Origin: Naegleria gruberi
Lineage: Eukaryota
Length of the DNA stretch: 64,000 nt
Direction: 5' to 3' (one strand)
NCBI GenBank assembly: GCA_000004985.1
Contig: GG738913.1
Below, in pieces: positions 23,432-60,379 of the stretch (position 1 is its first letter; each line of letters opens with the position of its first letter). The position numbers were made by a program, and so were the translations under genes. The notes beneath the pieces are model-generated. The model was not told the DNA's origin, did not search any database, and was given only the letters and a program-made list of their open reading frames with translations.

Positions 23432-25801
23432 ATGTCCATCAACAAGATTTTCACACACAATTTGGGTTTCCCAAGAATTGGAGCTCGTCGTGAATTGAAA
23501 CAAGCTTTGGAATCCTACTGGTCATGTAAAATTGATTTGAATGCATTGGAATTAGTCGGTACTCAATTGAGAAAGCAACATTGGGAACAACAATTACAAG
23601 CTGGTCAATTGGATTTAATTCCAGTTGGTGATTTTGCTTGGTATGATCAAGTTTTGGAATGGACAACAACTATTGGATGTATTCCAAAACGTCATCAATC
23701 TGATTCTGCTCAAGATCAACCTTTCCACTTGGATACTTTGTTTAGAATGGCACGTGGTAGAGCTCCAACTGGTCAACCAGCAGCTGCTTGTGAAATGACC
23801 AAGTGGTTTGATACTAATTATCACTTCATCACTCCAGAAATCAAATTGAATCAAGAATTTGCTCTTTCTCGTACTTTCCTCTTTGAGCAAGTTAAGGAAG
23901 CTGAACAAGTTTTGGGAATTGATCGTGTCAAGCCAGTTATTATTGGACCATTGACTTGGTTGTACTTGGCAAAGGGTGAGGAATTTGTTGGTTCTCTTGA
24001 TTCTAAGAAATTGACTCTTTTGGAAAAGTTGTTACCAGTTTACAATCAAGTTTTACAACAATTTAGTCAACTTGGTGTTAAATGGACTCAAATTGATGAA
24101 CCTGTTCTCTGTTTGGATTTGAATGATGAATGGAGACAAGCTTTCCAAACTTTCTATCAACAATTGAATCAATCCAAGAAGCTTAACATTTTGATTGCTA
24201 CCTATTTTGGAAATTTGTTGGACAACTTGAAAACTTTGGTCAATTTGCCAGTCGAAGCCATTCACATTGATGCTGTTCGTGCTCCACAACAACTTGCACC
24301 TGTATTGGAATCTCTCAAAAATTCCTCAAAGATTTTGTCAGTTGGCTTAATTGACGGAAGAAACATTTGGAGAAGTGATTTGGATGCTTGCATTGAAACT
24401 ATTCAAAAAGTTATCATTGGAGAATTCAAATTTGATGCTTCTCGTTTGTGGCTTTCTCCTTCCTGTTCCCTTTTACATGTTCCTTTCGATTTGAAATACG
24501 AAACTAAAATCGATGCAGAATTGAAGAGCTGGTTGAGTTTTGCTGTTCAAAAGCTGGAAGAGTTATCTTTGTTGGGTTATGCAGCCCTTCTTAAAGATGG
24601 ATGCGAAGGTTCAATTCCTTCCAATATCTCTTCTCTTCTCGCCACTCAAAGATCTGCAATCGAATCTAGAAGAAACTCTGTTAGAATCCACAATCCACAA
24701 GTCAAGTCCAGAATGAATGAATCCATCTCAACAGACAGATCACATCCATTCGATGATAGAAAGAAGGCTCAACAATCCAAATTCCATCTCCCAAAGCTTT
24801 TCCCAACCACCACCATTGGATCTTTCCCACAAACTCAAGAAATTCGTTCCATTCGTTTGAAATACAAGAATGGAACTGTTTCACGTGAATTATACGAAAA
24901 GTTCATGAAGGAAGAAATTGAGAAAGTTGTTCGTCTTCAAGAGGAAATTGGTTTGGATGTTTTGGTTCACGGAGAACCTGAAAGAAATGACATGGTTGAG
25001 TATTTTGGTGAATTGATGAATGGTTATGCATTCACTGAGAATGGTTGGACTCAATCATTTGGTAGCAGATGTGTTAAGCCACCTGTTATCTTTGGAGATA
25101 TTTCACTTGATAAGCCAATGACAGTTGAATGGTCTTCATATGCTCAATCTTTGACTGATAAGCCAATGAAGGGTATGTTAACTGGTCCAGTTACTATTTT
25201 GAACTGGAGTTTCGTCAGAGATGATCAACCAAGAAGTGAAACTTGTAAGCAATTGGCTTTGGTTTTAAGAGATGAAGTGCTCAACTTGGAAAAGGCAGGA
25301 ATTAAGATTATTCAAATTGATGAACCAGCTGTAAGAGAAGGTTTGCCATTGAGAAAATCTGACTGGAATACCTATTTGAAATGGGCAGTTGACTGCTTCA
25401 AGTTGACAACATCAGGTGTTGAAATTGATACTCAAATTCACACTCACATGTGCTATTCTGAATTCAATGACATTATTGACTCAATTGGTGCAATGGATGC
25501 TGACGTGATTAGTATTGAAACTTCTAGATCTAATATGGAATTATTACAAGCTTTTGAAGATTTCAAATATCCAAATGATATTGGTCCAGGTGTTTATGAT
25601 ATTCACTCTCCAAATGTTCCAAATGTTGAATGGATGGTCAAGTTGATCAAGAATGCTATTGAAAGAATTCCAAAGGAAAATATTTGGATAAATCCTGATT
25701 GTGGTTTGAAGACTCGTGGATATCAAGAAGTTAAGCAAGCTTTAATTGCTATGGTCCAAGCAGCTCAACAATTGAGAACTGAATTTGAAACTTGTCAATA
25801 A
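23432..25801 (+). CDS. metE: cobalamin-independent methionine synthase (5-methyltetrahydropteroyltriglutamate-homocysteine S-methyltransferase, MetE)
   Basis: MSINKIFTHNLGFPRIGARRELK start. Both MetE halves are present, with the C-terminal Zn site (HxC...E...C: IHTHMCYSEF...DCGLKTR). 789 aa in a single exon. Confidence 0.95.
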   Translation: MSINKIFTHNLGFPRIGARRELKQALESYWSCKIDLNALELVGTQLRKQHWEQQLQAGQLDLIPVGDFAWYDQVLEWTTTIGCIPKRHQSDSAQDQPFHLDTLFRMARGRAPTGQPAAACEMTKWFDTNYHFITPEIKLNQEFALSRTFLFEQVKEAEQVLGIDRVKPVIIGPLTWLYLAKGEEFVGSLDSKKLTLLEKLLPVYNQVLQQFSQLGVKWTQIDEPVLCLDLNDEWRQAFQTFYQQLNQSKKLNILIATYFGNLLDNLKTLVNLPVEAIHIDAVRAPQQLAPVLESLKNSSKILSVGLIDGRNIWRSDLDACIETIQKVIIGEFKFDASRLWLSPSCSLLHVPFDLKYETKIDAELKSWLSFAVQKLEELSLLGYAALLKDGCEGSIPSNISSLLATQRSAIESRRNSVRIHNPQVKSRMNESISTDRSHPFDDRKKAQQSKFHLPKLFPTTTIGSFPQTQEIRSIRLKYKNGTVSRELYEKFMKEEIEKVVRLQEEIGLDVLVHGEPERNDMVEYFGELMNGYAFTENGWTQSFGSRCVKPPVIFGDISLDKPMTVEWSSYAQSLTDKPMKGMLTGPVTILNWSFVRDDQPRSETCKQLALVLRDEVLNLEKAGIKIIQIDEPAVREGLPLRKSDWNTYLKWAVDCFKLTTSGVEIDTQIHTHMCYSEFNDIIDSIGAMDADVISIETSRSNMELLQAFEDFKYPNDIGPGVYDIHSPNVPNVEWMVKLIKNAIERIPKENIWINPDCGLKTRGYQEVKQALIAMVQAAQQLRTEFETCQ

Positions 25802-34693: not shown

Positions 34694-37600
34694 TTATTTG
34701 AATAAGCGAACTAGTTGATAGATTATGAAAATAACCAACATAGCATGGAGAAGGAAATGCACAATCATTGATTTGCTTATCAATGATGACTGCTTTCGTT
34801 CTACAGATTCGAATTGGACGTGTAAAATTCTCATACTTGAAGCCATCAATCCAGCAAATGGAATCCAACTTGGTGCCATGAATGGATATCTTTCTTTCAC
34901 GCCACCAATTTGTTGTCTTTCCTCCATTTGGTATTGCTCTGAAACTAGCTTTGCCTTTCTGTGAAGGGAATGCACAAATGGTTCAGCATCGACAACAAAG
35001 GATTTGAATGGACCTCCCTTATTGAGAGATTTCACAGAGCTTGGTGTGAAGAAATACGGAGCAAAGCCTGACATTTCAAAAAGAATATTACTACCTGGTA
35101 GTTTCTTTTCCAACATTTCGAATATTTGAACAAGTTGTGACTTTTCAAAGTAGAGGAATAGACCTTCTGCAATTACCAAAACTGGAATTGACTCACCAAA
35201 TGATTTTCTTATGAAAGCAAGATCTGAAAATGTTGATTCTTCTAGAATAGATCCACTTTTACATTCGTATAGTGGTTGTTTCGTATTGTCATTATTGTTA
35301 ACAATATTAAAAACTTGTCTTCTCAATTCAATGACATTTGGCAAATCAATATCAATCCAATGCACCTTCTCATTCATTCCAAATAATCTTTCATATCTAG
35401 AACACAATCCACATCCCAAATTAACAATCATTACCTTTTCATGCTTAGCCAAACTCTTACTCACAAATTCTTGTGATTTCCTATCCAAGACAATAGTTCT
35501 CCCAACAATATTAGTTCTGGTAATTCTATCATTCTGAACATCAACAGAGAGATCTTCTGGTAAGTTTTGGAAGATTTTCACAGCAATTGGATCATATAAA
35601 ATTCCATCGCTTTCAAGAGATTCGAGAGCTCTGGAAACGAGTGGAATGTAGAGAGTTCTTTCGAGAGGTGTGAGGACAGAGTTCTTATCTTGAGCAATGT
35701 CTACGTCAAAAGGAGTTGGATTATGTGATGATTGTTGTGGAGAGCCAAGAATGGAATGTGAAATAAGATTCGAATAATGTTTGTCAAGTTGATGTCCACA
35801 ATTCTTAACAGTAATAATATTCAATCCATTTCCTGCAAACTTATTCCAGTTGTTAATTGTATTTCCTGTTACTAATTTATCAAATTCGCCTCTGAGAGCA
35901 ATAACTGGACAGTCAACTTGGTATTTTCCAAAAATGTCATCGTCATAACAATGATATTTCAATAAAAAGTCAAATTGGTGTTTGAAAAGTGGAATTTCCA
36001 TCAAATCTCTAATCTTCTTTGCCTTTTCATCCAAGTTCTCAATTCCTTCTGTTACATTAGGGAACAAGTCAAGATCGACAATTCCATAAATGATCGATTG
36101 ATCTCCCAAAGTTTTAAATTTCACATAAGAATCACCATGAAGCGAATTTCCAGGAGCATTTCCACTAACAATCAATTTTACAGGTTTCTTATTGAACTTG
36201 AATTGAATAAATCTTGTAAATTCAAGAGCAACCAAAGCACCCATGCTGTGTCCATAGATTGTAACCGTATTGGAATTAAATAGTTGATGGACACAATCCC
36301 AAACTTGCATGAAATGAGCAGTCCAATCAGAATTATTTCTCAAATAATCCAAATTAATCACATAAATGGAAAATTCTTCAAGATTTAAATCTCTAAAATC
36401 ATGAACTGTTCCACCAAGTGCTGGAAAACAGAGTAAAACATTCTCTGATGATCTTTCTTGGATAGTTTCTAATAACAAGTGCTTTTCTAATGAATTGGTT
36501 TGATTTGGACTATTAGATTGTTGTGTTAATTGTTGATTGGATGATTTTCCAGAATTGGAAATCATTTCAACAAGAGTAGAAACCGAAACTCCAGATAAGA
36601 GAGTCGAAACTGTAATACTTGATGAAAATTCTCTTGATAGAATATTTCTTATTTCTACACTCATGAGAGAATCAAGACCATAGTCAACAAGTGGTTTCTC
36701 CAGTTGAATTTCACTTTCGTCCATTCCAAAAACTTTGGATACAATATCTGAAACCTTTCTAACAATTCCATCAACGTTAGAATCTGTAGTTGTTGATTTT
36801 CCTTCAATATTTGATTCCTTTCTTTGACGACCAAATGTTACATGAGGTGAAAGTGAATCCTCAGGCATTTCAAATCCAAAGAAGGTCATTGCAGGAGGAA
36901 GATCCATCTCGTGTTCAATCAAATATTCGAAATGATCAAGTAAATCATGAACATGCATAGCTCCAACCCAGAAATATTCATCAACTTCTGCCTTAGTTGC
37001 ATATCCAGCTCCTGTAATCAAACTTAGACCTAAAGATTGTCCAGCCAATCCACAACTTCTTCTATAGCTACACAAAGATTCTAAGAAATAATTTCCACTA
37101 TTATAGTTTGATTGACCGAATGCTCCAACCAAAGAACTGAAAGAGCTCAACATTAAAAAAGTGGATAGATTGCAATTGAGCTTGATTGAACATTGGTGAA
37201 GGTTGAAACCTCCGAGAATCTTTGGTCTGGCAACAGTTTCGTACTTTTCTTTTGTCATCTTATTTGCAGCACAATCGGATAAAACCATTGCTGAATGGAC
37301 AATTCCTGTAATTGGGAATTTTTGATGGATTTCTTGCATTGTTTGATAAAGAGTTGAGTAATTGCAAATATCAGTAATGTAAACATCAATAGATGCATTA
37401 GGGTTATTCAGCATAATCTTGTCAATGATCAATTTTTCAGATTTGTTTGGCATTCTTCTTGTAAGAAGGGCAATGTTTGAGACTTTCATCTTTTCAACAA
37501 GCCATTCGCACATCTTTAATCCAATTCCACCCAATCCTCCACTAATAACCCAACAACCGTTATTCAATATCTTCTTTTGAGATGTCAAAGAATTATAAAT

Positions 37601-40600
37601 AACATTGGAATAAAAGTGAACAAATCTTCCACTTTCAGAATAAACAATTTCATCATGAGTATAAACAGATTCAAGGACATCATCAACAATTTCACCAATT
37701 GAGTTTTCTGAACATTTAGGTTGCATATCAATAACCTTTAACTTCTTTTGGAATATCTCAGTTTGAATTGATCTCAAACATCCAACAATAGAAGATTGAG
37801 AAATGTTACATTCCTGATTGTAACCAAAAACTGAACTAGTTAGAGCAACGAATTTACATCTGCCAGTATTGAACTTGAGTATCTTACAAATTGAGTACAT
37901 AGATTCCACACAATTGGAAACTGTTTCAAACTCGAAAGAGCTTAAAGAAAGTGGCCAACCGAAAATAATTCCACAGATATTCAAAGTTTGATTGAATATT
38001 GATTCGAAATGTTCAAAATCTGCAGGATTAATAACGAATCCAGAATCAAGTTGTTGGAATTTTTCACCTTGAATAATTTTGACAACTTTTACACCTCTAG
38101 ATTTCAATTCTTCACACAATAAATTTTCCTTTTGTGTTTCAGAAGAGAAGAACAACCATCTCTCAACATTTTTCTCTTTCTTCTTTGCTATAATGTAATT
38201 TGCAGTACCAATTGGCAACATGACATTTGAAGGGAAATCACAATCCAATAAAACTTGTTCCCACTCATTTCCTGATAGCAAAGCAGATTGCTTTCTGAAG
38301 GAATCCTTAAAATACCACCATCCCTTCAAAGTACCAACGAAAAAGTGTAAAAATTGAGCTCCAAGAGGATCAGACTCAACTAGGACTAATTGACCATTGG
38401 AAACCAACAAGCTTGAAATGAGTGAAAAGACGGATTTCAAATCTTGAGTAGCATGAACAACATTAGCAGCGATTACCAAATCAAACGAATCCTTTTCAAT
38501 GAATTCTGAAGAAACAAATGGCTTTTCAATATCTAATAAAGAAAATTCCATAAAATATTCGAATTGTGCAAACTTTTCCTTTGCCTTCACCAAAAACAAT
38601 GGTGAAATGTCTGTGAAAACATACTTCACATCTATATAATCTCTCAATGAATCAAGAATTGGTAAAATTTGTTTGGTTGTTCCTCCAAGTCCAGCTCCAA
38701 TTTCCAAAATTCTCAAAGTCTTCTTTTTACCATTCTTTGGAATGGAGTTCAAAATAAAATCAAACAATGGTTTAGTTTGATGAGAAACTTCATCATAATA
38801 ATCATTCAATACATGTTCTTTTCTTGAAAATAGGACAGAAACAGGATCTGCCTCACCAGTTAATAATTGCTTCATGTGAATTAAACTATTTTCCACCAAA
38901 TCGATCAGATTGGAATAAAGATCAATTCTTGGAAATTCTCTCAAGGATTTGATAATATTAAATCTATTAGGAAGATCACTAACTACTGTATAAGTATCTG
39001 AATCATATTGGACAAGATTCATTTGTAAAGCCAACTCAATAGTCAATTGAGCAAGTCTCTTCAAATGTTCTGGTTGAATCCTAGAATTCAAAACAGAAAG
39101 CTCGATAGTAGAACTTTCACATAACTCTTGGAATACATTCAAACAATATTCAACACAAACCTTGGTAACAAATCTATTAAGAGATTCGTGTTCGTTTGAG
39201 TATTCATTGAGTTTGAAATTGAGAATAAACTCTTGCAATGATTCCATAGAAGGAAGAATAGATTTAGAATAGATTGGTTGTGGTGCAAAGTTTGATGATA
39301 CAATAGAAGTTTCTTGAAGTTTCTTTTCTTTGGTTTCCAAAGGTGAAACTTTGAAACCATTGAAAGAAATAAATGGCTCATTAGATTCTCCCAAAACTTG
39401 TAAATCACAAGTAATTTCTTTTGTTTGAGCATTCTTCGAATATTTAACACATCTGGTGATGGTGTGTTTCGAATTGTTTGGTTTTCTATGTGGGATGATT
39501 GTAATTTCGTCTGTGGAAATTGGAAGATAGGTTGTATCCTCTGGCATTGAACAAATCATCATTTGGAAACATGAATCAAGCAATGCAGGATGCCATGTAC
39601 AATATCTTTCGTCATTTTCCAAAGCTTTTGGATGGGAAATTTGTGCCATCAAAACTTCTCTTGTTTCGTCATGTCCAACTTGGCTGTACAAATCCAATCC
39701 TTGGAAACAAGGTCCATAATTGAGGCCACATTTGGACAGATTGAAATAGATATTCTCCTTATGAATGTTTTGTGTTTTTTCATCAAGATTTTCTGTGAAA
39801 TTTCTGAAAATATCAAAGGCTTTCAATTCTCTGTTTGTGAAATTGATGGAATCACCAGAATTAGAAGAATCTAGAGTTTTGAAAGAACCAAAGGCATGTA
39901 AAGTCCAATCACAAGGTAGCTTATTTGATAACTTGGAAGGATCTTTGGAAATTTCTGAATAATTAATAGATAACAAGTCAACCTTCTTTTTGCTGAAAAT
40001 TCTAAACTCATTAGCATACAAATTCAAATGAACTTGAACAATTCTAGGCTCTTGTTGTAAAATCATTGGATTTACCACTTTGAAATTGACTAGACGAAGC
40101 TCTTCAACATTCTTGGACGAGTTATCAAGAATTGCTGCAGAACTAATCTCAACGAAACCAGAATATGGGAAGAATACTTCATTTTCAATCTTGTGATCTC
40201 TAATATACATTTGATCAGTGTTAGAACTAATATCAATAAGACTCTCATAGATAATATCTGGAGAATTTTCCATTGGATTGAATTTTCTGTTACCCAAAAG
40301 TGGATGATTAATAGTTTCGAATTGACCAATTCTCCATCTCAAAGATTCATAAGATTCTGACCAACAAGATTGTTTCTGGAAAGGATATTTAGGAATTCCA
40401 TCCAATATCTTACTATTCTCTCCATATCTATTAATTTGTTTCCAATCAAGTTTAGAATATCCATTCACAAACAATGAGGAGACAACTTGTAACAAACTCA
40501 TTTGTTCATCCTTCTTTCTAATCAATGTTGGAATTACAGAAATAGAATCTTCATTTCCTAATGAAGAAGACGAAATATCCTTAATGTATCCATTCAAAAC

Positions 40601-43184
40601 CGGATGGGAAGATATTTCAATAACATATTTGATTGAGTTTTTGTAAGTGTGAAAAATCTCTTCCATAGCTTGTGAAAACAAAACCTTCCCTCTGACATTA
40701 TTCCACCAATATTCTGGTGTTGACATTTCTTGGAGGTTTGACTTTCTTCCAGTGACAGTAGAGAAAACGGCTTGAATATTATCATTTGGTTTGGTTCCTC
40801 TTTCCTTTTTTGAGATTCTATTAGAAAGAACTTCTAATAACTCTTTCTTGATTACTTCCATATGGCTGGTATGGAATGCAGCTTCATTTCTCAAAAAGAC
40901 ACAGTTGACTCTTGAGTTTGGTTCATTTTCCACATACTTGGTGAGATCAAGTTGCAATTGTTTCAACACATGTTCTTCACCACCAACTACAACGGAGGAA
41001 TTACTATTTACAGATGCAATCTCAACAGTATTGTTAAATCCAAGAATATCCAAAATTGAGGCCAATTTGTCCAATCCTAAATTGATAGCCATCATTTTAC
41101 CTGTTTTAGAAAATTCTTTCAAGATGGTTGCACATTTGTTTTGCAATCTTGCTCTATGATAAATCAAGAATACAGCTTCCTCTAGAGTGAGGCATCCATG
41201 CACGTATGCAGCTGTCACTTCTCCAACTGAATGTCCAACAACAATTCGAGGAGTGACTCCATATGATTTCAATACTTCATAACAACCACATTGTACTGCA
41301 AAGATACATGGTTGAGCAATGTTGGTTGAGTAAATTCTGGTGTCCTTTTCTGTTCTTGTAGTCAACTCTTCTACAATTGACCACTTGTCATTGGTTGGCA
41401 TTATCTTTTGCATTTCTGAATCAATTCTTTCAACTGTGGCAGAGAAAACATTGTTGGTTTCCAATAATTGTCTTCCCATAGCAAACCATTGAGGTCCTTG
41501 TCCAGAGAAAACAAAGCAAATATCGGATTTTTCTTCTCTCTTGCTTGAGTTACCAATGCTAGTTGATTCATTAGATGAAAAATTGGAGGACAATTGGAGG
41601 AGCTTTTCAACGAGCTCATCTTTGTTGTTGTAAATGATAGAAGCTCTGTAGTCTCTGAATTGACTCTTCTTTTCACAATAGTTGAAAAGTAAATCATCTT
41701 GATTGCATTGAGCTGAAAACTCAGCAACGCTACTAGACATCATCTTGAGTGAGTATTCACTCTTGGCAGAAAGTGGAAGAATTCTAATACCTTCTGATAT
41801 GCTATTCTTTCTTTGATGTTCTAATTGCTCAACACTTTGCAAGATGCAATGAGCATTAGTACCACCCATACCAAAGGAATTAATTCCAATAATAACAGGA
41901 TTGATATTAGAAGGGATTTCTTCTTCTTGCATGACAACTCTAATTTGTTTCTTCTCAAACTCAATGTGAGGATTGAGTGTGCTCTCAGTGCAATGAATAC
42001 TCTTAGCTATCTTCCTATGTTTCATCATGAGAATAGCTTTGATAATACTTGCAATCCCACTTGTTGCCTCTGTGTGACCAATATTACTCTTGACAGAACC
42101 AATTGGTAACTTGTCAAGTTTGTGCTTTCTTCTTTCTCTTCCAAAGAATGAATCAAGAGCTTGAGTTTCAATCTTATCTCCAATAGTAGTTCCAGTTCCA
42201 TGACTTTCAACATAATAAACATGTTGTGGAGGAATGCCACTCTTGTTGTACACTTGTTCCAATAATTCAACTTGTCCTTCCAGAGAGGGCATTGTTATTC
42301 CACTCTTTCTTTCTCCATCGTGATTGACCCAAGTTGACATGATCAAAGCATGAACTCTTTCATGTTGTGAAGAATTCGCATGCTTGTATGTGTTGATGAT
42401 GAGATGATGAATCTAATTTCTTCAAAATTAATACAGCAACACCTTCAGATTTTCCATAACCATCAACATGTGAAGAGAAGGTTTTACATCTTCCATCTGG
42501 TGCTGCTGCTCCAATAAGCTTTTGAGATACAAATTCTTGTGGAATGTAGTTTAAATTAACTCCAGCAACAATGGCCATTTCGCATTCATCTCTCTGTAAA
42601 CTTTCACATGCACAATTGAGTGCTACCAAACTTCCTGAACACATGGTATCGAGAGTGAATGACGGGCCTCTCAAATCGAAATGATACGAAATCCTGGCAG
42701 AATTGTTAGCTGGTGAAGAGTTTATCAAACTGTACGAGTTGTAAGTTTGCATGTCATGCCAGCCTTTCATGGTGAGATAATCTTGGTTCATCACAGAACA
42801 AAACACACCAATGTTTCTTCCTCTGATTTCTTCCCATTTAATTCCAGCATCCTCCAAGGCAATGTAAACTTGTTGAAGAAGGAGACGATGTTGTGGATCC
42901 ATGGAGCATGCTTCCTTCTTGGAAATTTCAAAGAATTCAAAATCAAACTCATCTAATGGTTTCTCCAAGAAGTGAGCCCTGTTGTAGGTTTGCTTATTGT
43001 TGTGGAATCTTGATGATTGTCTTTCCTTTGGTATGGTTGAGCTGGTGTCACTACCGTCAAGAAGAACTTGCCAGAATGATTCAACATCCACTGCCTGTCC
43101 AGGGAACATACAACTCATTCCAATGATGCCCATTGGTGAGTTTTCAGCAGAGTTTGATGGAGTAGTAGAATTGATAGAAATCAT
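34694..43184 (-). CDS. iterative type I polyketide synthase, KS-AT-DH-cMT-KR-ACP-TE-(TcmP/LCM-type O-methyltransferase)-TM; KS domain frameshifted at ~42363..42390 (two ORFs 42360..43184 and 34694..42346)
   Basis: ATG at 43182-43184 (MISINS...IIGMSCMFPG). KS motifs TMCSGSLVAL, HGTGT and GGTNAH. AT GHSVGE. DH HPLLGNRKF. cMT LEIGAGLGGTT. KR GGLGGIGL. ACP GLDSLMSVE. TE GHSMGALVALEF. LCM/TcmP-family VNLGCGLCSRYERL. C-terminal helix IVHFLLHAMLVIFIIYQLV. No ER domain. Confidence 0.9.
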
Positions 43185-51418: not shown

Positions 51419-54400
51419 TTAAGCCAAGTTAAGTTGTCCAATCAATACAATACAAATCAACACTAAATATACCAATGAAATTGCAGTTGCTGATGCTTCA
51501 GACACACGTTGACTTTTGGATGGTGTCACATTTTTGCTTCCAGAAGTTTTTGGAGTAGTGATACTCTTGCTTGGTTGAGGAATTGAGCCACCAGAAGAAG
51601 TGGATGGTGTTGGAGTAACTGTCTGTTCACACAAACCATTAACCAATGATTCTCCTTGAGAACAAGTTAAGGAAACTTTTCTAATTCTATTGTTCGAATC
51701 ATCTGAAATGTATAATTCACCTACTGAGCTCACTGCCAAACCTGTTGGAAAGTTCAATTGAGCACTTGTTGGTAAAGACCCATCTCCGCTCAATCCTGCA
51801 ATTCCATTTCCAGCACTTGTGCTAATAGTTCCATTGACATTCAATTTACGAATTCTATGGTTATACGAATCAGCAATGAACAAATCACCAGTTGAGCTAA
51901 CAACTAGGCCACTTGGATAATTCAATTGATAAAGTGATGCATTATTTCCTTCACCATTATATCCAGCTGTTCCATTTCCAGCAATTGTTGTAATTATTCC
52001 ATTCAATGAGACCTTACGAATTCTATGATTATTAGTGTCAGAAATCAGCAATTCTCCATTGGAATTGACTGCTACATAGCTTGGATTATTTAATGTGGCA
52101 CTTGTTGCAAGACCACCATCTCCACTAAAACCTGCAACTCCACTTCCAGCCACAGTGCTAATATCACCATTGGTTGCAATCTTTCTAATTCTATGATTAT
52201 TCGAATCAGCAATGAAAATTTCACCACTTTTTGAGCTAATTGCAAATGATTGAGAATTCAAATAAGAGTTAACTGCAGAAGAGCCATCGCCCAAACCACC
52301 AGCAACTGTACTAATCTTTCCACTAGAAAGTTTACGAATTCTTGAATTGAAAGAATCAATAATGAAAACGTCACCGTTCGAATTGGAAGAAACTCCACTT
52401 GGATAATTGAAACATGTACTTGTGGCTGCCAATCCATCACCATTGAAACCAATCGCTCCACTTCCAGCAATGGTTGAAATGTATCCATTCGCAGCTACCT
52501 TTCTAACTCGTTGATTGTATTGGTCAGAAATATAAATTTCTCCAGAGTTTCCAATAGAAATGCTGAATGGGAAATTGAGCTTGGCATTGGTAGCTAATCC
52601 ATTATCTCCACTGAATCCAGAAGTTCCAGTTCCTGCAACAGTTGTAATGATACCAGAGGATGAAGAAACCTTTCGAATTCTATGATTACCAGAATCGGCA
52701 ATATAAATATCATTATTAGTCAAATTGACTGCTACTGCAAATGGAACGAACAATTGAGCATTAATGGCCAACCCATTATCTCCGCTAAATGTTGCCTTAT
52801 ATGCAACTGTTCCATTACCAGCAATTGTTGAAATATAACCACTAGTAGAAACTTTACGAATTCTATTATTACGAGTATCGGTGAAAATCAATTCACCATT
52901 TGAATTCATTGCAATTCCATTTGGATAATGGATTTTGGCAGATATGGCCAGCCCACCATCTCCACTGAATCCAGATTCTCCACTTCCTGCCACAGTTGAA
53001 ATGATACCACCAGTTGAAATCTTTCTAATTCTGTGGTTTTCAGAATCGGAAAAGTAAATTTCACCACTCGAGCTCACTACCACTCCTTTTGGATTATTCA
53101 ATTTGGCACTTGTAGCAGAGGAGCCATCTCCACTGTAGCCACTTGTGCCAGTTCCAGCAATTGTTGTAATGTAACCATTCGAAAGTTTACGAATCTTGTG
53201 ATTGGAAGAATCTGAAAAGTAAGAGTCACCATTAGAAGAGATGAAAATAGAGTTTGGATTATGTAATCTTTCAGTGATTGCTAACCCATCGCCACTGTCA
53301 GCTCCAATAGCACCAGTTCCTGCTACAGCTGTCAAACTTGATTTGATTTTTGACAAATACGAACCAAGATACATGACATATACTTCATTATTATAATAAC
53401 TAACTGCAGAACCCAAAGGAGTTACTGAACTAAGAGTGGAAATTACATTAGTTGACAAATCAACTCTTCTAACTTTTCCATTATCAGTAAATAAAAGATT
53501 ATTTCCATAAATAATAGGATTTCCATTTGGAGAAACAAATGATTTGCTTGCTTGAACATCCTCTCCAAAACTTGAGGTACCAGCAAATGTTGAAATCACC
53601 CCACTTGCAGAAATCTTTCTAATTCTATGATTATACGAATCTGAAATGAAAATTTCACCTACAGAGTTGACCACAATTCCAGAAGGCAACCACAATTGAG
53701 CATTAACGGCCAAACCACCATCTCCACTCAATCCAACAGTTCCTGTTCCTGCAATTGTAATAATGGTACCATTTGTCAAAATCTTTCTAATACGATTGTT
53801 AACAGAATCTGAAATGAAAATTTCACCATTCGAATTGACTGAAATTCCACTTGGATAATTCAATTGAGCATTCTTTGCCAAGATGGAATCTCCATTAAAA
53901 CCAGCAGTTCCAGTTCCTGCAACTGTAGTGACAATACCACTATTCGAAATCTTTCTAATTCGATGATTTCTTGAATCTGCTACAAATAGTTCACCATTCG
54001 AATAGAATGCTGCTCTTGGTGCATTGAATTTGGCATTTGTGGCCTGTCCATTATCACCACTGTATCCAGCAGCTCCAGTTCCTGCAATAGTTGTGATATT
54101 TCCAATGGAGGAAACCTTTCGAATAACATTATTAGAAGTATCGACAATAATAACTTCACCACTTGAGGAATTAAGAGCTAAACCGTATGGAGAGTTTAAA
54201 AGCGCATTCGTAGCAAGACCCCCATCACCACTATAACCATAGGATGAGGCAGTTCCAGCAATGGTTGAGATTTTTCCATTTGTAGAAACCTTTCGAATAA
54301 CATGATTGGAGGTATCAGCAATGAAAGTTTCTCCCAAAGAATTAACAATTACACCATAAGGAAAGTTAATTTCGCTCTGTGTAGCCAATGCACCATCTCC

Positions 54401-54709
54401 ACTAAATGAAGAAGTACCAACGCCTGCAAAAGTTGAAACATCACTAGACGAAACCTTTCTAATACGCTGATTAAACGTATCAGCAATAAGAATTTCACTA
54501 TTCAAGCCTAATGCTATCCCATACGGATATCTCAAGAGAGCATTCCCTGTCATTCCATCACCAATTTTACTTCCACCTCCAATCAATGTTGAAATTTTGA
54601 CAGTTGGCAAGGAAGTTGAATGGACATGTGGAAAATTCATCATCACAACGATGAATGTAATGAGCAACCATATGGTAACGAGAATTTTCAATGGTTTGCG
54701 TGAAATCAT
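51419..54709 (-). CDS. secreted, GPI-anchored NHL-repeat protein (>=14 NHL repeats)
   Basis: ATG at 54707-54709 and a signal peptide. A reiterated ~50-aa unit ...G.GDG..A..A.LN.P.G.A..S.G...I.D..NHRIRK(V/I)S.NG.I.T.AG... (NHL/YD-type beta-propeller blades). S/T/P-rich stalk and hydrophobic tail LVYLVLICIVLIGQLNLA. Confidence 0.85.
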   Translation of the reverse strand: MISRKPLKILVTIWLLITFIVVMMNFPHVHSTSLPTVKISTLIGGGSKIGDGMTGNALLRYPYGIALGLNSEILIADTFNQRIRKVSSSDVSTFAGVGTSSFSGDGALATQSEINFPYGVIVNSLGETFIADTSNHVIRKVSTNGKISTIAGTASSYGYSGDGGLATNALLNSPYGLALNSSSGEVIIVDTSNNVIRKVSSIGNITTIAGTGAAGYSGDNGQATNAKFNAPRAAFYSNGELFVADSRNHRIRKISNSGIVTTVAGTGTAGFNGDSILAKNAQLNYPSGISVNSNGEIFISDSVNNRIRKILTNGTIITIAGTGTVGLSGDGGLAVNAQLWLPSGIVVNSVGEIFISDSYNHRIRKISASGVISTFAGTSSFGEDVQASKSFVSPNGNPIIYGNNLLFTDNGKVRRVDLSTNVISTLSSVTPLGSAVSYYNNEVYVMYLGSYLSKIKSSLTAVAGTGAIGADSGDGLAITERLHNPNSIFISSNGDSYFSDSSNHKIRKLSNGYITTIAGTGTSGYSGDGSSATSAKLNNPKGVVVSSSGEIYFSDSENHRIRKISTGGIISTVAGSGESGFSGDGGLAISAKIHYPNGIAMNSNGELIFTDTRNNRIRKVSTSGYISTIAGNGTVAYKATFSGDNGLAINAQLFVPFAVAVNLTNNDIYIADSGNHRIRKVSSSSGIITTVAGTGTSGFSGDNGLATNAKLNFPFSISIGNSGEIYISDQYNQRVRKVAANGYISTIAGSGAIGFNGDGLAATSTCFNYPSGVSSNSNGDVFIIDSFNSRIRKLSSGKISTVAGGLGDGSSAVNSYLNSQSFAISSKSGEIFIADSNNHRIRKIATNGDISTVAGSGVAGFSGDGGLATSATLNNPSYVAVNSNGELLISDTNNHRIRKVSLNGIITTIAGNGTAGYNGEGNNASLYQLNYPSGLVVSSTGDLFIADSYNHRIRKLNVNGTISTSAGNGIAGLSGDGSLPTSAQLNFPTGLAVSSVGELYISDDSNNRIRKVSLTCSQGESLVNGLCEQTVTPTPSTSSGGSIPQPSKSITTPKTSGSKNVTPSKSQRVSEASATAISLVYLVLICIVLIGQLNLA

Positions 54710-54907: not shown

Positions 54908-55957
54908 ATGGCAAATTGTAACAATGTTTCCCACCTCAACAGGTCAATCCTGGTGACAATTCTTCTATCCTCCCTTCTGTTCACATGTTTCGTCTCACTT
55001 TCCCACTCAACCATAACCAAGACGAAACTCTACGGTTTAAACTTTGCAGGTGCAGAATACGGATCAATGCCAGGTCGTTACGGCTACGATTATATCTATC
55101 CATCTGCCTCTGATATTAGTTTATATGTTGCCACAATGAATTTGAATGTAATTCGTCTTCCTTTCAAATGGGATAGACTTCAACCGAAACATGGTCAACC
55201 ATTAGATTCTTTGGAATTAGCAAGAATAGACGCAGTTGTTTCAGTATGTGCTACTCATGGGGTGTCTGTTCTATTGGACCCTCATAATTATGGATATTCT
55301 GTGAATGGATTGATTGGCACGTCAGATGAGCCAACTGAAAATTTCACAGATTTTTGGATTCGTCTAGCTCAGCATTATTTAGGATATGATAATGTGATTT
55401 TTGGAATTATGAATGAACCGCATACACATACACCACTTCAATGGGCAGATATTGCTCAAACAACTTTGAATGCTATTAGGTCAACTGGTGCTACTCAATT
55501 GGTTCTTGTTCCTGGAACTTTTTATACTGGAGCTCATTCTTGGACATCTAATGTTCTTGGACAATCAAATGCAGAAGCATTGAAGAATATTAAGGATTCT
55601 GCCAATAATTTCATGTTTGAAATGCATCAATATTTAGACAGTGACAATTCAGGAACTCATTCGACATGTGTCAGCTCAACAATTGGTTCGACAAGATTGA
55701 AAACTACTACTGATTGGTTACGTCAAAATGGATTTAAGGCATTTTTAGGTGAATTTGGAGCTTCTGATGATACAGTTTGCATGCAAGCTCTTTATGACAT
55801 TTTGCAATTTATGGGAAATAATACTGACGTTTGGCATGGATGGACTTATTGGAATGCTTCTCCATGGAGTACAACTTATATTTATGCTGCTTATCCCCCT
55901 GATGAGAATCAACATCCTCAAGTTTCAATCTTGAAAGAAGCAATGGGAGTAGTTTAA
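54908..55957 (+). CDS. glycoside hydrolase family 5 endoglucanase (cellulase), secreted
   Basis: Signal peptide. IRLPFKWDRLQP. Acid/base in GIMNEPH. Nucleophile FLGEFGAS. YLDSDNSGTH. GH5 subfamily-2-like spacing. Confidence 0.9.
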   Translation: MANCNNVSHLNRSILVTILLSSLLFTCFVSLSHSTITKTKLYGLNFAGAEYGSMPGRYGYDYIYPSASDISLYVATMNLNVIRLPFKWDRLQPKHGQPLDSLELARIDAVVSVCATHGVSVLLDPHNYGYSVNGLIGTSDEPTENFTDFWIRLAQHYLGYDNVIFGIMNEPHTHTPLQWADIAQTTLNAIRSTGATQLVLVPGTFYTGAHSWTSNVLGQSNAEALKNIKDSANNFMFEMHQYLDSDNSGTHSTCVSSTIGSTRLKTTTDWLRQNGFKAFLGEFGASDDTVCMQALYDILQFMGNNTDVWHGWTYWNASPWSTTYIYAAYPPDENQHPQVSILKEAMGVV

Positions 55958-56109
55958 TAATTTTAAAAATTATTAACAATAAAATTTACAATAAAAACTT
56001 GAATGTAAACTAAAATATCCATATTCGATATGAAGAACTATCAACTATTTAATGTCCACTTAAAAACATAAAGATGAATAATTCCAATAATTGTTTATTA
56101 TTTGAAGTT

Positions 56110-57402
56110 TTACAAGAGTAAAACTGCAATCATGACAAATAAAGTCATAACAGAAATGACAGATCTAACTGCAGAGCTACCTCTTGAAGTTGTTGCAATG
56201 ACCTTATCAGTATATTGAACAGAGTATTCCTTTCTGTCCATTTCAAGAGTCCATCCCTTATCGATTTCAGCCTTACCAGCTTCAACAATCCATGGCTTTA
56301 AGACATAGCTTCCTTCAGTTGGTGAGTTTTGAATCTTGACAGACATGGAGAGAGTACCAGTACCAGGAGCAACACTCTTTTGAATTGCCTTACCAAACCA
56401 AGAATAATCTGGTAATCTCAAAAAGTCAACTACAATATCCACATTGACATTGGCAGAATAATCAACATCAACTGTAACAGTTTGACTATTCAATGGAATT
56501 TTAACTGGTGGAGTCTTAATACGAATGGAATTACCAACCAATGGTGCATTATTATTATTGGTTGATCCAGAATTTGAACCAGTTGATGGAGCGGGTGTAG
56601 GAGTAACTGGGTTACCTGTAGATGTAATTTGAGCATCCCAACATGAGGTATATGGAGCACTTCCAGCATTGAATACCCATCTCCATTGGAAAGCATAACG
56701 ACCCTCAGGAGTGTTAGCTGGAATTGTGAAACAATTAGTACACAATGCCTTATCCATATTTTCACAGAATTTTGGACAATTTTGGAATCCTTTACCACCA
56801 CCATTTTCCAAAGTATTTGGAGCAACGTTATTTCCCCAATCTTGCAATAATTTCCAATCATTAGCACCTGGATCACTGGTTGGATTCAAACTAGAGTAGT
56901 AAATCTTGTTTCCATTATCTGGAATGTATTGGTTGGTGCATGAAGCAGCAACGTGATTCTTGGCTGGATATGCAAGACAAACCTTTTGTCCTGGTCTGTA
57001 TGTGGCCATTGGATATGATGATCTGTAAAAAAATCATGTGGTCAACCAGGACATGTTAAAATTGCAGAGAAACTTACGTATAGAAAGATTGATAGTTTCC
57101 ATTGGTAAGACCATATTTACAACTAGTATCTTGGTGATTGTATCCAGTATCTCCACCGAAAGCGCTGTTAATAGCTATTAGAAAGTTGAAGAAATAAATA
57201 TTCGAAATGTAAATATATTCGAATTAAATGAACTTTACGTACCAGCATGTGCAGACCAATTTCTTGGACGTGCTCTACATTTAGAAGCACTGTAATATTG
57301 ACCGTTTTCTTCAGTATAATCAGTGCAGTCAATCCATGAGTGAGCATAGACAGCAGACAGACACAAGCTCAACACGAATAATGAAAGAATAACTTTGTGC
57401 AT
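56110..57402 (-). CDS. secreted protein with His at the predicted mature N-terminus, LPMO-like candidate, with S/T/P linker and GPI-anchor-like tail; exons 57243..57402, 57078..57174, 56110..57022
   Basis: ATG at 57400-57402 gives MHKVILSLFVLSLCLSAVYA|HSWIDCTDY..., so His is the first residue after the signal peptidase site. Introns GTACGT..AATAG at 57175..57242 (68 nt) and GTAAGT..TTACAG at 57023..57077 (55 nt) join in frame (total 1170 nt). C-terminal TPTPAPS linker and hydrophobic tail VMTLFVMIAVLLL. Confidence 0.65.
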
Positions 57403-59305: not shown

Positions 59306-60379
59306 TTATTCGTAAATATCAATTTTCTTATCTACAAGTGTGTAATACAAATAAGGTCCATCCAAAGCTAGTGAATTTGGTTTACTTCCCAAAACTTTAA
59401 TTTCCTTTACTGATCTTTCTACATCAATTATGAGTAAGCCAAGTGCAGTTGAGCATAGGATCTTATTCGAATCTCTATCACAGGTCAAATACAAGCATTC
59501 GGTATTATCAAAGCTCTTGATGCATCTCCAATCTCTTCTTCTGTCCTTCTCCAAAATAAGTATTTTATCGAATAGAGAAACAACTAAATGTCTGTCATTG
59601 AGAAAATCAACCGATTGTAAAATTCCATTAAAACTAAACTCAATCATGGTTAATGGTTCTCCTGTAGAAGCTTCCAAAATTGCAATACAATCACTTTCTC
59701 TATCACAAACATATAGAGTATTCTCAGAGAAATGATACTTTTCATTGAATGATTTAGATCCATACGAAACAGCTGTAGAATAGGGACTATCAAAATTATC
59801 TTGTACCCAAACTTGACATTCACGTATATTTGCATCTGGTGCACAAAGTTTTTCCAAATCGTATTTAATTAATTTTCCATAACTTCCATAAGCAATATAT
59901 AAGGCATCCGTTCTACTATCACAATATTCTAATTCCAAGGCAAGTGAATCTCCTTCTCGTTCAGTTTCTACACATGAACAGAATTCCAAAGAATTTACAT
60001 CAAAAATTAGTAATCTTTCCAATATATTATCCAAGACAATGATAGCTTGGTGAGTATGTGAAATTTTCACATCATATGGATTAGTAAATAGACAATCACC
60101 AATAATTCCTTCAACTTCTATAGATCCATCAATCGAATCGACACAATTAAACTGATACTTGAATGTACTCAATTTCCTCTTCTCCCAATGTCTTTTCAAT
60201 TTCACCATGGAATTTAATAATTCCTCCCTTTCATTAAAATTCCACAAATTAACTTTTACACAATCTTCATTAACTTTCTGATCAGCATTCTTCTTGATTT
60301 TTTTCTGTGATGATTCTCCACCCGATGATGAAACTCGTTTTCCTGATGATGAAATTTTCACCCCACCAATTTTTTTCAT
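59306..60379 (-). CDS. beta-propeller-like repeat protein, tandem paralog Y
   Basis: ATG at 60377-60379. Shares blocks with 60538..61453 (ALYIAYGSYGKLIKYDLEKL vs NIILVGSEKMLYKYDLKKIL). Repeated hydrophobic-blade pattern. Confidence 0.5.
   Translation of the reverse strand: MKKIGGVKISSSGKRVSSSGGESSQKKIKKNADQKVNEDCVKVNLWNFNEREELLNSMVKLKRHWEKRKLSTFKYQFNCVDSIDGSIEVEGIIGDCLFTNPYDVKISHTHQAIIVLDNILERLLIFDVNSLEFCSCVETEREGDSLALELEYCDSRTDALYIAYGSYGKLIKYDLEKLCAPDANIRECQVWVQDNFDSPYSTAVSYGSKSFNEKYHFSENTLYVCDRESDCIAILEASTGEPLTMIEFSFNGILQSVDFLNDRHLVVSLFDKILILEKDRRRDWRCIKSFDNTECLYLTCDRDSNKILCSTALGLLIIDVERSVKEIKVLGSKPNSLALDGPYLYYTLVDKKIDIYE

Follow-up and report, generated by a model that had tools for sequence, protein, structure and literature searches.

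A candidate surface-anchored lytic polysaccharide monooxygenase of a new family, encoded next to a GH5 endoglucanase gene in Naegleria gruberi

Gene organisation of the locus

We analysed a stretch of 64,000 nucleotides from contig GG738913.1 of Naegleria gruberi (assembly GCA_000004985.1), here called the window, in which the gene for a GH5 endoglucanase lies tail to tail with a gene for a secreted protein that resembles lytic polysaccharide monooxygenases (LPMOs). The LPMO-like protein, which is the main subject of this work, is identical over its 389 amino acids to XP_002670674.1 (NAEGRDRAFT_81788, D2VZ51_NAEGR), a Naegleria gruberi entry that carries only the name "predicted protein" at NCBI. 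The two genes and the parts of the LPMO-like protein are located as follows.

54908..55957, plus strand: GH5 endo-beta-1,4-glucanase gene, a single intron-less open reading frame (ORF) of 349 amino acids with an N-terminal signal or anchor-like hydrophobic segment
55958..56109, no strand: A+T-rich spacer of 152 bp between the two convergent stop codons
56110..57402, minus strand: LPMO-like protein gene, exons 57402..57243, 57174..57078 and 57022..56110, 389 amino acids
57343..57402, minus strand: signal peptide, residues 1-20, predicted cleavage between VYA and H, from family-wide (-3,-1) statistics
56620..57342, minus strand: LPMO-like domain, residues 21-220, across both introns, from conservation, a weak DUF7492 match and the fold of an orthologue
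57342..57340, 56955..56953 and 56652..56650, minus strand: His21, His109 and Tyr210, within the LPMO-like domain
56542..56619, minus strand: Ser/Thr/Pro/Asn-rich linker, residues 221-246, read from the sequence
56194..56541, minus strand: beta-sandwich domain resembling a carbohydrate-binding module (CBM), Pfam PF27624 Porph_assoc, residues 247-362
56113..56193, minus strand: C-terminal signal of the glycosylphosphatidylinositol (GPI) anchor type, residues 363-389, read from the sequence

An earlier sequence-only reading of this DNA had described a GH5 cellulase on the plus strand ending 150 bp from the 3' end of a three-exon gene on the minus strand, and this arrangement held in our analysis. 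The product of the GH5 ORF matched the Pfam Cellulase model PF00150 with an E-value of 3e-56, and the LPMO-like gene runs from an ATG at 57402 to a stop codon at 56112..56110 with two GT..AG introns (57242..57175 and 57077..57023). For intron 1 a second in-frame donor/acceptor pair (57239/57164) was seen, which would give a protein of 387 amino acids that differs in a loop only; depending on the donors and acceptors used (57239..57243 / 57164..57174), the loop reads HAAINSAFGG in the NCBI model or HAGTAFGG in the shorter one. The 387-residue version equals the orthologue of Acrasis kona in length, and the 389-residue version has its intron phase in common with a relative on a metagenome contig from ENA (L004). 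We set the shorter model aside because the NCBI model has 389 amino acids and the intron phase found in L004. This relative (L004 1744..2990, plus strand) shows an identity of about 50% and has its second intron placed elsewhere, splitting the K-N-H motif before the His, and intron positions are thus not conserved in the LPMO-like family. Within the window no second copy of either the GH5 or the LPMO-like gene was found.

Protein family and conserved residues

The N terminus of the LPMO-like product reads MHKVILSLFVLSLCLSAVYA followed directly by HSWIDCTDY, and it had been proposed that the His after the signal peptide is residue 1 of the mature protein, as in LPMOs. We examined this proposal at the level of the family. 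A word-index search with the protein returned 73 relatives. An exhaustive search of 1.84 billion cluster representatives with a hidden Markov model (HMM), built from an alignment with the Acrasis orthologue as its first row, returned 588 matches at E ≤ 1e-3, of which 358 remained at a threshold of 1e-10 and 176 at 1e-30. The family thus holds 588 clusters at 50% identity or more. Named members come from Heterolobosea and Amoebozoa (Acrasis kona and Gocevia fonbrunei), from the oomycete genera Saprolegnia, Aphanomyces, Achlya, Thraustotheca and Globisporangium, and from the ochrophyte alga Phaeothamnion. In nearly all HMM matches the first residue of the LPMO-like domain falls within positions 15-30.

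The H-[STA]-W motif was located in 161 full-length sequences of the family, at a median distance of 18 residues from Met1. The position directly before the His is A, S, G, C or T in 156 of them and the position three before it is V, A, T, I, S, G or C in 158, which corresponds to a canonical signal-peptidase site ahead of the His in about 97%; the same (-3,-1) rule is obeyed at VYA/HSW in the Naegleria protein. From these statistics and the position of the motif, the His is the predicted mature N terminus throughout the family. Conservation was counted in 132 representatives at 50% identity. The first His was kept in all 110 representatives that reach its column, and for this reason we do not regard it as a product of chance, although in one protein alone it could be. 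The second His that the sequence-only reading had asked for was located in the K-N-H motif, where it is present in 131/132. The Tyr of a Y-x-x-C motif is nearly invariant (123/126, plus two representatives with Phe), and the Gln of a G-F-Q-N-C-P motif is also highly conserved (125/132). In XP_002670674.1 these residues are His21, His109, Tyr210 and Gln166, and the 200-residue domain additionally holds Phe203 and ten Cys.

Predicted fold

The fold was modelled on the LPMO-like domain of the Acrasis orthologue, which is 56% identical, with an alignment of 32 rows. The resulting model had a predicted local distance difference test score (pLDDT) of 87.6 and a predicted template-modelling score (pTM) of 0.87. 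It contains the immunoglobulin/fibronectin-III-like beta-sandwich core that is found in AA9-11 and AA13-17. In a Foldseek search the top 26 matches were all LPMO or LPMO-like chains, with template-modelling (TM) scores of 0.46-0.49, and the best match was the cellulose-active ScLPMO10C (E 5.5e-6). The fold comparison per family gave figures of 11.4 for AA11, 10.9 and 10.5 for AA10 and 10.4 for AA15, followed by AA13 (9.8), AA9 (9.8), X325 (9.1), AA16 (8.4) and AA14 (7.8).

In the model the second His stands directly after a core strand and the Tyr at the start of the last strand, a placement that agrees with LPMO topology. His21 and His109 are the predicted ligands of a copper histidine brace. 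The sequence-only reading had left two options, a new LPMO family or a cupredoxin-like fold outside the LPMOs; the first stands as a candidate, and the second falls away because the predicted fold is that of an LPMO.

Relation to known LPMO and LPMO-like families

The protein had been said not to match the N-terminal signatures of known AA families, and our searches agree with this. The Pfam LPMO models (LPMO_10, AA9) gave no match at E up to 1 or 10. When the family profile was searched against all PDB sequences at E up to 10, among which an AA17 structure is presumably included, only AA11 chains were found (4mah at 5e-5, 9exj and 7p3u), and the solved chains of the remaining LPMO and LPMO-like families gave no match. 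The AA11 match is limited to a short C-terminal block of the profile, in which the family Tyr was aligned to position 140 of AoAA11 both by hmmsearch (E 5e-5) and by hhalign (36 columns, probability 83%); similarity to AA11 thus covers only about 36 columns and not the whole catalytic module. In the published structure of AoAA11, Tyr140 is reported to bind the copper in the axial position.

Known AA11 LPMOs are fungal and chitin-active, and they differ from the present family in several respects. In AA11 (AoAA11, 4MAH/4MAI; AfAA11B, 9EXJ) the second His lies in the context S-A-x-H-G-G-G-S-C-Q, compared with K-N-H-V-A-A here, and the N terminus reads H-M-x-M-x-Q-P, compared with H-S-W-x-x-C-x-D-Y. 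The Glu two residues before the AA11 Tyr is not conserved here, the Cys pattern differs, and the identity in the structural alignment is 16%. The AA10 and AA15 enzymes (ScLPMO10C, 4OY7; CBP21, 2BEM; Thermobia TdAA15A, 5MSZ) were matched in fold only, with TM-scores below 0.5; LPMO_10 remained silent at E up to 10 and no chain of these families was found by the family profile.

The only Pfam-A model that matched the LPMO-like domain was DUF7492 (PF24320), to which Pfam gives no function. Its score of 29.0 bits lies just above the gathering cut-off of 27. The alignment pairs residues 19-138, from the last residues of the signal peptide through the K-N-H region, with positions 2-128 of the profile, and so takes in only the N-terminal half of its 265 positions. 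Weak DUF7492 matches were also obtained for 13 of 26 relatives and for 45 of the 132 representatives. By these scores the family looks like a sister group of DUF7492 and not a core member, membership being marginal.

AA18, which we take to be CelOCE, was considered as a home for the LPMO-like family and was set apart on the basis of its description in the literature, the presumed CelOCE being a different enzyme. CelOCE is a metagenomic cellulose oxidase (PMC11946906) and is described elsewhere as a bacterial metalloenzyme. The family profile matched no CelOCE chain in the PDB copy searched, which may not include a CelOCE structure. The LPMO families named in papers of July 2026 are AA9-11 and AA13-18, with AA18 cited to Santos et al., 2025. 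Voshol et al., 2017, describe LPMO14 (now AA16) and a Drosophila family, and neither is the family considered here. In the open-access literature searched we found no paper on DUF7492 or on Naegleria together with LPMOs, which is not proof of novelty; nothing relevant was found on AA19-21, and LPMO together with Dictyostelium gave unrelated papers only. XP_002670674.1 is presented as a candidate with an LPMO fold and LPMO-type ligands that is closest to AA11 and lies outside every established family, in the case of AA18 by description.

C-terminal domain and membrane anchor

The linker rich in Ser, Thr and Pro and the GPI-type tail that had been noticed earlier were both located in the protein (residues 221-246 and 363-389). 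In the tail the small residues G-S-S are separated by a short spacer from a hydrophobic stretch of 16 residues that reaches the end of the protein without a cytoplasmic extension, and surface attachment through this predicted GPI-type signal is the likely outcome.

Between the linker and the tail we identified a domain that the earlier description did not include. Residues 247-362 matched PDB 8wae, the porphyran-binding CBM of a beta-agarase, with an E-value of 2e-6 in sequence comparison, and precomputed tables label the region Pfam PF27624 Porph_assoc. A word-index search with this domain alone returned no homologues, whereas a jackhmmer search over the family set found it in about 25 of 220 family proteins. 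In nearly all of those with a complete C terminus, it follows the LPMO-like domain and precedes a GPI-type tail or a transmembrane segment with a short cytoplasmic tail. The setting differs from that of 8WAE and Porph_assoc, which are a module of a bacterial agarase, whereas here the domain belongs to a eukaryotic surface protein, with an LPMO-like domain on one side and a membrane anchor on the other. The literature searched held no relevant paper on 8WAE or Porph_assoc. The domain may be a glycan binder or a membrane-proximal stalk.

The GH5 neighbour and fused cellulase modules

The GH5 product is a genuine endoglucanase as judged from Pfam, its solved relatives and its motifs. Among solved structures it is most similar to 5hpc and 4w7u, both titled 'Cellulase' (E 1e-83), Thermoascus EGI (1h1n, 6e-59) and EG-II (3qr3, 3e-44), and the catalytic motifs NEP (in MNEPH, with the acid/base) and GEFG (in LGEFG, with the nucleophile Glu) are visible in the sequence. 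By its similarity to the entries 5hpc, 4w7u and 1h1n, the enzyme presumably belongs to subfamily 5 of GH5. No exact copy of the 349-residue product was present in a collection of 15 billion proteins, although the NCBI models of the neighbouring genes are there; the reference annotation probably has another start for this gene, another gene model or none.

The earlier proposal of a cellulolytic pair had drawn on the adjacency of the two genes, and the relatives of the LPMO-like protein now extend it beyond adjacency. A CBM1 was present in 10 of the 132 representatives, and a CBM2 and a CBM49 in one each. In P0171 and P0077 an LPMO-like domain and a GH5 cellulase are joined in a single polypeptide, and P0193 combines an LPMO-like domain with two CBM1 and a GH45. 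The GH5 module in P0171 and the GH5 enzyme of the window share 39% identity (E 1e-73), so that the functions encoded tail to tail here are joined as one gene elsewhere. Among the fused domains of the 132 representatives none of the chitin modules CBM14, CBM18, CBM5/12 or GH18 was found. Taken together, the cellulose-type fusions and the lack of a chitin module make cellulose or a related beta-1,4-glucan the best-supported target. The domain fusions weigh far more than the GH5 neighbourhood, which is weak evidence when taken by itself, and cooperation of the LPMO-like protein with the GH5 enzyme is plausible.

The other genes flanking the pair are unrelated to it and encode an NHL-repeat surface protein and Sir2-like, F-box, BTB and TLDc proteins. 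At two loci of Acrasis kona a gene of the ferric-reductase/NADPH-oxidase type with SH3 domains (L002 9386..11305, plus strand; L003 4123..6042, plus strand) lies about 230 bp 3' of the orthologue on the same strand. Such a neighbour might supply an LPMO with superoxide or H2O2, but its position could also be a coincidence.

Proposed function and alternative explanations

With a probability of roughly 0.6 we propose that XP_002670674.1 belongs to a new LPMO family and is a copper LPMO tethered to the cell surface, which with His21, His109 and Tyr210 at its active site would oxidise cellulose chains and open them for the secreted GH5 enzyme. According to this proposal the signal peptide would be removed after Ala20, so that the mature protein would begin with His21. 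Through its amino group and its side chain, His21 would then form a histidine brace around one copper together with His109 of K-N-H, with Tyr210 of Y-x-x-C in the axial position and Gln166 as a candidate second-sphere residue. Once reduced, the copper would react with H2O2 or O2, and a glycosidic carbon in a crystalline polysaccharide would be oxidised. The likeliest substrate would be cellulose or another beta-1,4-glucan, in which the breaks would serve as new attack sites for the secreted GH5 enzyme, and the CBM-type beta-sandwich and the GPI anchor would keep the LPMO-like enzyme on the surface of the amoeba.

Several points weigh against this proposal. The fold model was built on the Acrasis orthologue and not on the Naegleria protein itself. 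The position two before the Tyr, the classical second-sphere site of N/Q/E-x-Y/F, is mostly Asp in the family and Ala in XP_002670674.1. X325 proteins, which are GPI-anchored, are copper binders that do not cleave polysaccharides. Of the solved structures, those nearest in fold (AA11, AA15 and many AA10) are mostly chitin-active, judged in part by PDB titles. Finally, no GH5 gene was found near the LPMO-like homologues at either Acrasis locus, Acrasis being the one informative species since the L004 contig is too short.

These points feed different explanations. The protein could bind copper through a histidine brace and serve in copper acquisition, buffering or redox signalling without cleaving glycans, as the fungal X325 proteins and Bim1 do. 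The GPI anchor, which XP_002670674.1 has in common with X325, and the absence of Q or E two before the Tyr would fit such a role. We nevertheless consider it unlikely, because X325 proteins (LaX325, 6IBH; Cryptococcus Bim1) are described as having Asp as an additional ligand and as lacking CBMs (PMC13353379), whereas the present family keeps an axial-type Tyr, and the fusions to CBM1, CBM2, CBM49, GH5 and GH45 make little sense for a copper carrier. XP_002670674.1 itself also bears a CBM-type domain, and the family profile gave no match to X325 6ibh in the PDB. An even smaller chance is given to a true LPMO with another substrate, which could be chitin or else a polymer, for example a galactan, from the cyst wall or glycocalyx of the amoeba itself or from its prey, in which case the GH5 gene would be a coincidental neighbour. 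Such a substrate would agree with the chitin-active structural neighbours, with the 'Chitin-binding type-4 domain' tag that UniRef gives to several oomycete members, with a C-terminal domain that is most like a porphyran-binding, and thus galactan-binding, CBM, and with the GH5 adjacency not being kept in Acrasis. Against it, all identifiable fused modules (CBM1, CBM2, CBM49, GH5 and GH45) target cellulose or beta-1,4-glucan, none of the fused domains targets chitin, and the fused GH5 is of the neighbour's type. In our judgement it is very improbable that the protein is a surface glycoprotein without catalytic function, serving in structure or adhesion, that merely shares the immunoglobulin-like beta-sandwich with LPMOs and in which the His and Tyr are structural, as the His is fixed at the signal-peptidase site in every member.

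A broader version of the proposed surface-tethered LPMO is put forward more tentatively, and we would put it at somewhat less than even odds. In this version XP_002670674.1 would define a ninth family of LPMOs with a histidine brace that extends over Discoba, Amoebozoa and stramenopiles and that carries a CBM-like stalk and a GPI or transmembrane anchor. Its members would cut or remodel the cellulose of their own walls or cyst walls or of prey, and in Acrasis the enzyme might be fed with H2O2 by the NADPH-oxidase-type neighbour. Naegleria is a bacterivore, and there the possible uses include the digestion of cellulose-walled prey or of bacterial cellulose and the remodelling of its own cyst wall. 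The composition of the Naegleria cyst wall could not be established from the literature searched.

Other observations in the window

Immediately upstream of the GH5 gene lies an ORF of 1096 amino acids (51419..54709, minus strand) that is full of NHL/teneurin-type NHL repeats. It has a signal-like N terminus, a stalk rich in Ser, Thr and Pro and a hydrophobic C-terminal tail, and its product is probably a second surface-anchored protein in the neighbourhood.

Further away, the region 23432..25801 (plus strand) encodes a cobalamin-independent methionine synthase (MetE) of 789 amino acids. Its identity is 100% with an N. gruberi protein at NCBI and 83% with a protein of Willaertia magna. The next-best matches were a metagenome protein from ENA (64%) and then MetE of Bordetella, Alcaligenaceae and metagenomes (61-65%), and no other eukaryotes were present in the top 120 matches. 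This suggests a bacterial origin of the heterolobosean MetE gene.

A large type I highly-reducing polyketide synthase was found at 34694..43184 (minus strand), with ketosynthase, acyltransferase, dehydratase, C-methyltransferase, ketoreductase, acyl carrier protein and thioesterase domains. It has an unusual C-terminal domain resembling leucine-carboxyl methyltransferase and is spread over two ORFs, which are presumably split by an intron. Additionally, two ORFs (59306..60379, minus strand, and 1080..2156, plus strand) showed weak matches to DUF1229 and to a GlfB-like C-terminal domain, families associated with dictyostelids.

Significance

The recently recognised LPMO families AA14 to AA17 each changed the views on how recalcitrant polysaccharides are attacked. 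Biomass degradation is not generally associated with microbial eukaryotes such as free-living amoebae, oomycetes and algae. If the proposed role is true, oxidative polysaccharide cleavage would be extended to microbial eukaryotes, with a family that is centred outside fungi, bacteria and arthropods. The membrane tethering and the natural fusions to GH5 and GH45 give a hypothesis on substrate and synergy that is directly testable. If the protein is a copper-handling factor instead, the finding would be relevant to the metal biology of amoebae. As an LPMO, it would provide a function for an uncharacterised Naegleria gene and, by extension, for the Pfam DUF family that it weakly matches.

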